This document shows, piece after piece, positions 21,001 to 24,000 of a stretch of DNA of 64,000 nucleotides. This DNA is from Escherichia coli (lineage in GTDB: Bacteria; Pseudomonadota; Gammaproteobacteria; Enterobacterales; Enterobacteriaceae). Numbering within the stretch: position 1 is the first letter of the stretch; every line of letters starts with the position of its first letter. The stretch is taken from the NCBI RefSeq assembly GCF_009931435.1, contig NZ_CP043414.1; one strand, given 5' to 3'. Position numbers: made by a program.

Positions 21001-24000
21001 CGACAGATTGCTTTTCTGCGGATGGGGATGGATATCAATGCCTGGCTGGTTTCCCGCTCACTGTGGAATGCGGATCAGTCTAAGGATGTAGAGACGCTTT
21101 GCGCCTCCGTTATTACAACATGGTCGTATGATGCCCTGGGTGCGGGGGCGGAGATGGTTCTGTCGCTGAGCGGTATGGGGGCCATTGATAATGCCGGGGA
21201 TGATGAGCATGAGGCGCTGACGCCGGAAAAGTCCTGACGCGGGAAATGCAGTTTGTCATGCGGCTTGCCCGGGAGTTCCGGCGGGCAGACTGGCGGCGGA
21301 TGCTGTCGGAAATGTCGGCCACTGAGCTTGGTGAGTGGGGCGATTATTTCCGGATGCAGAGCTTCAGTGATGTGTGGATGGATGCGCAGTTTGCCTCGCT
21401 GAAGGCATTGATCGTGAGAATGGTGTCCGGCAGCAGTGATGCTGCGGTGGCTGATTTCAGCCTTTTACCGGAAGAGAACGGGATACCGGAGCGAACGGAC
21501 GAAGAACTGATGCATCTTGGAGAAGGTATTTCCGGAGGTGTGCGTTATGGACCAGATAGCCAACCTGGTCATTGATTTGGGGATTGATGCGGCAGAGTTT
21601 AAAAATGAAATTCCCCGTATCAAAAACCTTCTGAATGGTGCCGCCAGCGATGCAGAACGGTCTTCTGCCCGTATGCAGCGTTTTATGGAGCGTCAGACTC
21701 AGGCCGCCCGGCAGACAACGCAGGCGGCTTCTTCGGCTGCAACAGCCGCCTCCGTCCATGCGCAGACGGTGGAGAAGAACGCACAGGCTCATGAACGCAT
21801 GGCCCGCGAGGTGGAGAAAACCCGCCAGCGCATGGAGGCGCTGAGCCAGAAAATGCGCGATGAACAGGCGCAGGCCATGGCTCTGGCGGAGGCTCAGGAT
21901 AAAGCGGCTGCTGCGTTTTATCGTCAGATTGACAGTGTGAAACAGGCCAGTGCGGGGCTGCAGGAATTACAGCGTATTCAGCAGCAGATCCGACAGGCCA
22001 GAAACAGTGGCGGGATTGGTCAGCAGGATTATCTGGCGCTGATTTCTGAGGTTACGGCGAAAACCCGTGTTCTTACACAGGCTGAGGAAGAGGCTACCCG
22101 ACAGAAAGTGGCGTTTATCCGTCAGCTTAAAGAGCAGGCAACCCGCCTGAATCTTTCATCTTCTGAGTTGCTTCGTGCTAAGGCAGCCCAGCTGGGGGTA
22201 AGCAGTGCTGCAGAAGTGTATATCCGCAAAATGGAGCAGGCAGGAAAAGCCACGCATTCGCTGGGTCTGAAAAGTGCAGCAGCCCGCCAGGAGATAGGCG
22301 TTCTGATAGGTGAACTGGCCCGCGGCAATTTAGGGGCGCTGAGGGGATCCGGGATAACGCTGGCTAACCGTGCCGGATGGATAGACACACTGATGTCACC
22401 GAAAGGCATGATGCTTGGCGGGGTTATTGGCGGTATTGCCGCGGCCGTCTATGGTCTGGGTAAAGCCTGGTATGACGGTCAGAAGGAGGGGGAAGAATTT
22501 AACCGCCAGTTGTCGCTGACGGGGCATTATGCCGGAGTCACTGCCGGGCAGCTGTGGACGCTCAGTCGTGCTATTTCCGGGAATGGTATCACGCAACATG
22601 CTGCAGCCGGTGCGCTGGCTCAGGTGGTGGGGAGTGGTGCATTTCGTGGAAACGATATCGGTATGGTGGCGAGAGCTGCCGCACAGATGGAGCGATCGGT
22701 TGGCCAGTCGGTCAGCGATACCATAAATCAGTTTAAGCGGCTGAAGGATGATCCTGTAAATGCCGCGAAGGCTCTGGACAATGAGCTGCATTTTCTTACT
22801 GCCACTCAGCTTGAGCAGATACGTGTCCTTGGGGATCAGGGACGGTCCAGTGATGCTGCACGGATAGCCATGTCTGCACTGGCAGAGGAAACCGGTCGGC
22901 GTACTGCGGATATTGATAATAACCTCAATGCGCTTGGCAGTACGCTGAAGTATCTGTCTGATTTGTGGAGTCGTTTCTGGGATGCGGCCATGAATATTGG
23001 TCGTGAAGACTCGCTGGATGAACAGATTGCCGCTTTACAGGAGAAAGTGTCGCGGGCGAAAAGACTCCCCTGGACGGCATCATCTTCTCAGGTTGAATAC
23101 GATCAGCAGCGTCTTAACGATCTTCAGGAGAAAAAACGCCAGAAGGATTTGCAGGATGCAAAAGAGCAGGCAGAGCGGAATTATCAGGAGCAACAGAAAC
23201 GCCGTAATGCTGAAAATGCTGCACTGAACCGGATGAATGAAACGGAAGCGGCACGACATCAGCGTGAAATTGCGCGTATTAATTCCATGCAGTACGCCGA
23301 TCAGGCTGTCAGGGATGCAGCGATACAACGTGAAAATGAACGTTACGAGAAAGCCCTGGCATCCGGTAAGAAAAAAACACGCGAAACCCGTAATGATGAG
23401 GCCACCCGGTTATTGCTGCAGTACAGTCAGCAACAGGCACAGGTGGAAGGACAGATTGCTGCTGCAAGACAGTCAGCAGGCATTGCCACGGAAAAGATGA
23501 CAGAAGCGCATAAACAGCTTCTGGCTCTGCAGCAGCGCATCAGCGATCTGGACGGGAAAAAACTGACGGCAGATGAAAAGAGTGTGCTGGCCCGTAAAGA
23601 TGAACTGATTCAGGCACTGACGCTGCTGGATGTAAAACAGCAGGAGCTTCAGAAACAGACGGCACTCAACGATCTGAAGAAAAAAACAATTCAGCTGACC
23701 AGTCAACTGGCTGAAGAAGAGCGCGCTCAGCGTCAGCAACATGACCTGGATATCGCCACGGTGGGTATGGGTGATCAGCAGCGGCAGCGATATCAGGTAC
23801 AACTGAGTCTTCGCCAGAAATACCAGCAACAGCTGGAGCAGTTGAGGCGGGATAGTGAGCAGAAAGGGACATATAACACGGATGACTACAGAAAGGCCGA
23901 GCAGGCGCTGACGGAGAGCCTGAACCGACAACTGAATGAGAATCGCCGTTACTGGCAACAGCTTGAAGTTGTGCAGGGTAACTGGAAAAACGGAGTCCTG

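Follow-up and report, generated by a model that had tools for sequence, protein, structure and literature searches.

A probable lambda-type programmed -1 frameshift at GGAAAAG linking the tail chaperone frames G and T in an mEp460-like prophage of Escherichia coli

Introduction

How is the T part of a phage tail assembly chaperone expressed when its frame overlaps the 3' end of gene G and no conserved start codon precedes it? The question is raised by a prophage within a 64,000-nucleotide (nt) stretch of Escherichia coli DNA (contig NZ_CP043414.1; this whole stretch is called the window here, and all positions refer to it). An initial annotation of the window had proposed that G and T are joined into a fusion protein, gpGT, by a -1 frameshift at the A-rich heptamer GGAAAAG. 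Our analysis supports a programmed -1 ribosomal frameshift of the lambda G/GT type at this heptamer with a probability of roughly 0.86. We favor this reading because the protein families of G and T, the gene order, the position of the site, selection at a synonymous site, the poor conservation of the annotated T start and the precedent of phage N15 all point to it.

The G/GT shift of phage lambda goes back to Levin, Hendrix and Casjens (1993) and to Xu, Hendrix and Duda (2004, 2013, 2014), as cited in the review of Atkins et al. (PMC5009743), according to which G-T frameshifting is conserved in a wide range of long-tailed phages. In the lambda model presented there, gpG and gpGT bind the tape measure protein through their G parts while the T part binds the tube protein, with a ratio of about 30:1 (PMC5009743). 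The feature treated below is already known in kind and in detail, and only its annotation is missing for this lineage.

A conserved, probable shift site in the G/T overlap

Gene G belongs to Pfam family PF06894 (Phage_TAC_2, the lambda gpG family; E=2e-39 over residues 2-122 of 129 amino acids (aa)) and is 33% identical to lambda G (BLASTP E=2e-17). Two starts are in use for it. RefSeq, through the Prokaryotic Genome Annotation Pipeline (PGAP), begins at 20851, and the mEp460 record begins at ATG 20848, which yields the 129-aa form. The sequence MFLK forms the N-terminus of every G homologue. T matches Pfam PF06223 (Phage_tail_T; E=5e-15) and is 38% identical to lambda T (BLASTP E=5e-27). Its frame is -1 relative to G and open from 21213, exactly as the initial annotation had described, and the overlap with the last eight G codons that it reported amounts to 25 nt, that is, seven sense codons and the stop. 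A TGA just before the open part, at 21210-21212, closes the frame. The 3' end of the G frame also reads as proposed, ...ACG CCG GAA AAG TCC TGA, with the stop at 21235-21237. The -1 relation of T to G is found in nearly all related loci examined, and the exceptions carry 1-nt indels.

Inside this overlap lies the heptamer GGAAAAG in the register G_GAA_AAG. The window contains 16 copies of it against 9.1 expected, so that the heptamer alone is not significant. We rejected its rarity as an argument, and its significance must instead rest on position and conservation. For this comparison, 172 usable related loci were gathered from IMG/VR and from species-representative genomes, anchored on the T motif LARE[FM]. 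Clustering of the 166 loci whose G is full-length, at 85% identity over the first 100 T residues, gave 35 clusters. The slip Lys lies 12 residues upstream of LARE[FM] in 172/172 loci, lambda included, and the heptamer takes the form G_GNA_AAR in all of them, with A, G, C or T at position 3. GGAAAAG itself occupies the homologous codon in 148 of the 172 loci and in 26 of the 35 clusters, from Escherichia, Salmonella, Kluyvera, Kosakonia, Serratia, Rahnella, Erwinia, Citrobacter, Klebsiella, Providencia, Enterobacter, Pluralibacter and others. The other forms are GGCAAAA (12 loci), the lambda type GGGAAAG (6), GGTAAAG (3), GGGAAAA (2) and GGAAAAA (1).

The heptamer had been singled out as a slippery candidate differing from the lambda site G GGA AAG. 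The lambda sequence does carry this site, and the difference is real, yet GGAAAAG is the commonest form in the family. The alignment with lambda that the initial annotation recommended as a check places the two heptamers at homologous positions (lambda, GCG GGA AAG TGT... with K-VFDGELSFALK-LARE in the T frame; here K-VLTREMQFVMR-LARE). Among 26 lineages the alignment from the heptamer onward holds without gaps across 86 nt. Phages phi80 and mEp237 carry GGAAAAG too.

The conservation of the heptamer is seen at the nucleotide level. The G proteins of the lineages that share it are 32-99% identical, and their C-terminal tails are hypervariable (for example ...DDEHEALTPEKS, ...GEQVPLTPEKS, ...SAGETAEKR and ...QEPESLEK), with the heptamer fixed. 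The codon preceding GAA encodes Pro, Ala, Leu or Val, and only CCG, GCG, CTG and GTG are used. Base 1 of the heptamer, a four-fold degenerate third position, is G in 26/26 clusters compared with 37% over the preceding 38 codons (binomial p=7.6e-12), and it is not part of what the T frame translates. The heptamer is under selection as a nucleotide sequence, and the simplest reading of the invariant base 1 would be that selection maintains the ability of the P-site tRNA-Glu to re-pair on GGA. G_GAA_AAG does not follow the canonical X_XXY_YYZ pattern, because the central base pair formed on P-site re-pairing is G.U.

Several loci deserve a separate mention. In a sister clade the slip Lys is AAA (G_GCA_AAA, G_GGA_AAA or G_GAA_AAA; loci L127, L128, L133, L135, L140, L151, L175 and L130) and the G stop TAG follows directly in every case, which suggests a stop-assisted P-site slip. 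At AAG-type sites the G stop is located 0, 1 or 5 codons downstream. Locus L140 has two candidates in its overlap, an in-frame G_GAA_AAG and, four codons further on, G_GCA_AAA_TAG at the homologous position. In L007, L033, L034, L035 and L085, 1-nt indels interrupt the T frame, either a short way past the heptamer or deeper in the frame; prophage decay or errors of assembly may account for them, and in L007 the heptamer is intact despite the broken frame. In L038 the homology of G ends about 25 nt upstream of the heptamer, leaving 18 codons of open G frame and an intact T, which looks like a mosaic junction or a deletion just before the shift site.

Proposed frameshift and its precedents

We propose that ribosomes would start at ATG 20851 and that most of them would terminate at TGA 21235, giving abundant gpG. 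A minority would slip one base back, to GGA and AAA, when the P site holds GAA (21226-21228) and the A site AAG (21229-21231). The tRNA-Lys would re-pair perfectly (AAG to AAA), and the tRNA-Glu on GGA would form G-C at position 1, G.U at position 2 and A-U at position 3. Reading would then resume with GTC at 21231 and end at the stop at 21573-21575. The predicted gpGT, join(20851..21231,21231..21575), would be 241 aa long, with 127 residues of G and 114 of T (...TPEK-VLTREMQF...). The lambda model, by analogy, would have the G part of gpG and gpGT coat the tape measure protein H and the T part of the rare fusion recruit the tube protein V. Our comparison shows the homology of the genes, the relation of their frames, the homologous position of the site and selection on the heptamer; that the shift takes place in this phage, how efficient it is and what the two proteins do, we infer.

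The closest precedent for the site itself is N15, whose GenBank record (NC_001901) labels positions 10027-10033, which read GGAAAAG, with the misc_feature "slippery sequence for -1 translational frameshift". Genes 14/15 of N15 have this identical heptamer at the homologous position and a T (gp15) that is 43% identical. They differ in a G stop five codons past the site, in having no Shine-Dalgarno (SD)-like element upstream and in a G that is only 30% identical. Gifsy-2 (STM1039/STM1041.1n), a Salmonella phage, belongs to the same subfamily (54.7% identity over the fusion, 52% over T). Its G frame also ends ...ACG CCG GAA AAG TCC TGA with GAGG 10 nt upstream of the heptamer, and its T homologue bears the annotation "part of G+G' frameshift hybrid protein". 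In contrast to the window, where ATG 21246 is present, Gifsy-2 T (lineage L117) is without an in-frame start codon.

Lambda shares with the window the homologous G and T domains, their placement between V and H, the -1 frame of T, the homologous Lys position and the lack of a conserved 3' structure. This comparison supports the earlier argument that the conserved G/T arrangement speaks for a fusion product. The two differ in the heptamer (G_GGA_AAG in lambda; G_GAA_AAG here, with a P-site tRNA-Glu and a central G.U after the shift), in the distance to the G stop (five codons past the site in lambda, one codon here), in the ATG that follows soon after the G stop in this phage, and in the GAGG 10 nt upstream, which is missing in lambda. 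The site is an ordinary member of the lambda G/GT frameshift family.

Alternatives to the frameshift

Several observations weigh against this reading. In a reconstituted E. coli system, G_GAA_AAG (as AUG GAA AAG) served as a "less slippery" control on which only one tRNA can re-pair properly, and it gave mainly the zero-frame product (Peng et al., PMC6924986). Z_ZZN tetramers including A_AAG, without a stimulator, shifted in vivo at a mean of 0.147% against a background of 0.112% (Sharma et al., PMC4066793). These published measurements suggest that GGAAAAG is intrinsically weak. No stimulatory RNA structure emerged downstream either. The local hairpin at 21233-21273 is no better than shuffled sequences (z=-0.96), and the RNAalifold consensus of 26 lineages reaches -1.4 kcal/mol without covarying pairs, so that no conserved 3' structure is present within 80 nt. 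A dnaX-like 3' stem-loop 4-10 nt past the site was not found, and a downstream stimulatory structure was rejected as a candidate on the strength of these results. A literature search returned no experimental data on this phage or its close relatives, the mEp460/cdtI-type phages included. Finally, an ATG lies 8 nt after the G stop, and some T may be synthesized on its own in this phage.

The alternative that survives best keeps the same fusion product and differs in mechanism only. Here the -1 shift would be a single-tRNA event, made by tRNA-Lys on A_AAG or by the P-site peptidyl-tRNA and tuned by GAGG, in the manner of dnaX or Bacillus subtilis cdd. We regard it as possible but doubtful. Of all tetramers in E. 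coli, A_AAG is the one most prone to shifting, and its response to a stimulator is strong, with 5.6% shifting when the IS3 pseudoknot is present (Sharma et al., PMC4066793). The variation of heptamer position 3 among A, G, C and T across the family would fit this mechanism as well, while the invariant G at the four-fold degenerate position 1 argues that P-site re-pairing matters. The sites related by mechanism are E. coli dnaX (A_AAA_AAG, SD-like element 10 nt upstream) and single-codon A_AAG sites such as those of B. subtilis cdd and IS1222. With these the window has in common the A-site move of tRNA-Lys from AAG to AAA and a possible upstream SD-like stimulator within the spacing of 9-14 nt (PMC5009743). 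The genes are unrelated, and dnaX also uses a 3' stem-loop, of which no conserved counterpart exists here.

An SD-like spacing of 9-14 nt has been reported to stimulate -1 shifts (PMC5009743), and the GAGG at 10 nt fits this range. With SD-like elements called by the criteria of Sharma et al., 16 of the 26 GGAAAAG clusters have one, against a background of about 17% and none in the three GGGAAAG clusters. In the 26 lineages the SD-like peak lies 10-14 nt upstream, where coverage by the motif rises to 50-54% (at 12-14 nt; at most 27% elsewhere in the tail) and the mean anti-SD pairing energy is lowest (-4.5 kcal/mol). The element is missing in 10 of the 26 clusters, and in N15. It also coincides with codon -6 (window 21211-21213), which encodes Glu in 19/26 GGAAAAG lineages, and also in lambda, within an otherwise hypervariable tail. 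The SD reading of GAGG is confounded because Glu is conserved at this codon and the preference for GAG is modest (GAG:GAA 12:7). A role of the upstream GAGG as an SD-like stimulator is a tentative suggestion for these reasons. With similar reserve one could imagine a distinct class, G_GNA_AAR, in which the P-site tRNA pairs at positions 1 and 3 only and which is boosted by SD-like elements in the mEp460/Gifsy-2 subfamily. If this were true, the subfamily would set its G:GT ratio by a combination of signals unlike that of lambda.

A second alternative does away with the fusion: T would be made as a separate protein from ATG 21246, perhaps by reinitiation after TGA 21235. Besides the short distance to the G stop, the wide annotation of the 109-aa form (see below) and the poor performance of GGAAAAG in vitro would agree with it. 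The 109-codon open reading frame opened by this ATG ends at 21575. In other lineages, Ile, Arg, Leu or Lys codons stand in place of the ATG, and three of them, L117 (Gifsy-2 type), L140 and L130, contain no in-frame ATG, GTG or TTG from the opening of the T frame to LARE. Anti-SD pairing before ATG 21246 is weak (-4.3 kcal/mol) and abuts the start codon, compared with -7.0 for G (GGUGGAG, spacing 8 to 20851), -13.3 for H and -16.6 kcal/mol for V, all at normal spacing. On the unconserved start codon and this weak energy we disfavored independent initiation.

The conservation of the T frame itself begins upstream of the ATG, directly after the slip Lys, and the BLASTP alignments to the T segments of N15 and Gifsy-2 start at the first post-shift residue. 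In an alignment of ten sequences including lambda, the T-frame Glu at 21243-21245 (E132) is invariant; K127 is invariant as well, and [VA]-L is conserved, all upstream of ATG 21246. A separate T would also leave the synonymous-site invariance of the heptamer unexplained, and the T domain of lambda is functional only within gpGT (PMC5009743). We consider a separate T improbable for this phage. Independent initiation cannot be the conserved mode of T expression, and ATG 21246 probably encodes a Met inside gpGT.

Transcriptional slippage of RNA polymerase, for which the site offers four consecutive A residues and nothing more, was rejected on general knowledge as having practically no chance of making the fusion: in bacteria, about seven or more identical bases in a row are required for productive slippage of this kind, and the flanking G_G and the final G, which are conserved, suit tRNA re-pairing.

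Annotation of T and gpGT

Database records treat the locus differently from the frameshift proposed here. None of seven mEp460-type or E. coli records examined contains a joined G-T coding sequence. All records examined for the lineage (mEp460, cdtI, Tritos, Ayreon and RefSeq E. coli genomes) annotate a stand-alone T. Most of them start it at ATG 21246, and the start is guessed inconsistently across them. In Ayreon (MF807953, locus L002), T is annotated at 2033-2296, from a later ATG than in the other records. In a collection of 15 billion proteins the 109-aa T is found on at least 1000 contigs, and the predicted gpGT of 241 or 242 aa is absent. Among the records examined, a frameshift is annotated only in N15, in Gifsy-2 and, from another family, in HK97. 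A biologically relevant protein, gpGT, would then be systematically missing from annotation while a probably non-existent stand-alone T is propagated, and a useful outcome of the present analysis would be to correct the annotation of this prophage lineage.

A full-text search for GGAAAAG as a G-T site yielded nothing but primers and the kinetic paper of Peng (2019). The authors of PRFect list a hypothetical "twofour" motif class (PMC10885494), which we read as covering the GGAAAAG pattern. The commonest natural site of the family is one that scores weak in reconstituted systems. GGAAAAG could serve as a simple test case for the amount of slippage that a phage needs and for the context signals that supply it.

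The tail gene region

The features of the region are collected in Table 1. The G/T pair is flanked by the tube gene V on one side and the tape measure gene H on the other, with Z and U upstream and M and L downstream, and the order Z-U-V-G-T-H-M-L is that of lambda. The segment matches a prophage of E. coli O157:H16 strain Res13-Lact-PEA12-26 at 100% identity and phage mEp460 at 99.6%, and cdtI, Tritos and Ayreon are likewise close. Roughly a third of the complete E. coli genomes (1845/5426) carry it.

Table 1. Positions of the G/T frames, the shift site and neighboring features in the window, with the G stop codons that follow the minor heptamer forms.
Feature	Position	Strand	Remarks
V, tube protein	20047-20790		Phage_TTP_12; C-terminal immunoglobulin (Ig)-like domain
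Terminator-like hairpin and T run, between V and G	20811..20837	+	terminator annotation in mEp460, Ayreon and N15
G, tail assembly chaperone, zero-frame product	20851..21237	+	128 aa; TGA 21235-21237
Candidate SD-like stimulator GAGG	21211..21214	+	10 nt upstream of the heptamer
Upstream open part of the -1 frame	21213..21230	+	not expected to be translated
Shift site GGAAAAG, register G_GAA_AAG	21225..21231	+	one codon before the G stop
T segment, -1 frame, post-shift (predicted)	21231..21575	+	114 codons and stop 21573-21575
Stand-alone T start in database records	21246..21248	+	8 nt after the G stop
H, tape measure gene	21547..24612	+	Pfam TMP_2, Tape_meas_lam_C; overlaps the end of T
GGCAAAA, GGGAAAA and GGAAAAA sites in related loci			TAG immediately after each

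Two smaller observations concern the borders of the pair. Within window 21534-21549 (+ strand), the SD sequence of H, GGAGGUG (-13.3 kcal/mol), is encoded in the conserved GGVRYG codons at the C-terminus of T, and the ATG of H, at 21547, precedes the T stop by 29 nt. The hairpin between V and G is GC-rich (GCCCCGG..TTCGGGGC) and is followed by six T (window 20811-20837); this terminator-like element may lower the expression of G, T and H relative to V.

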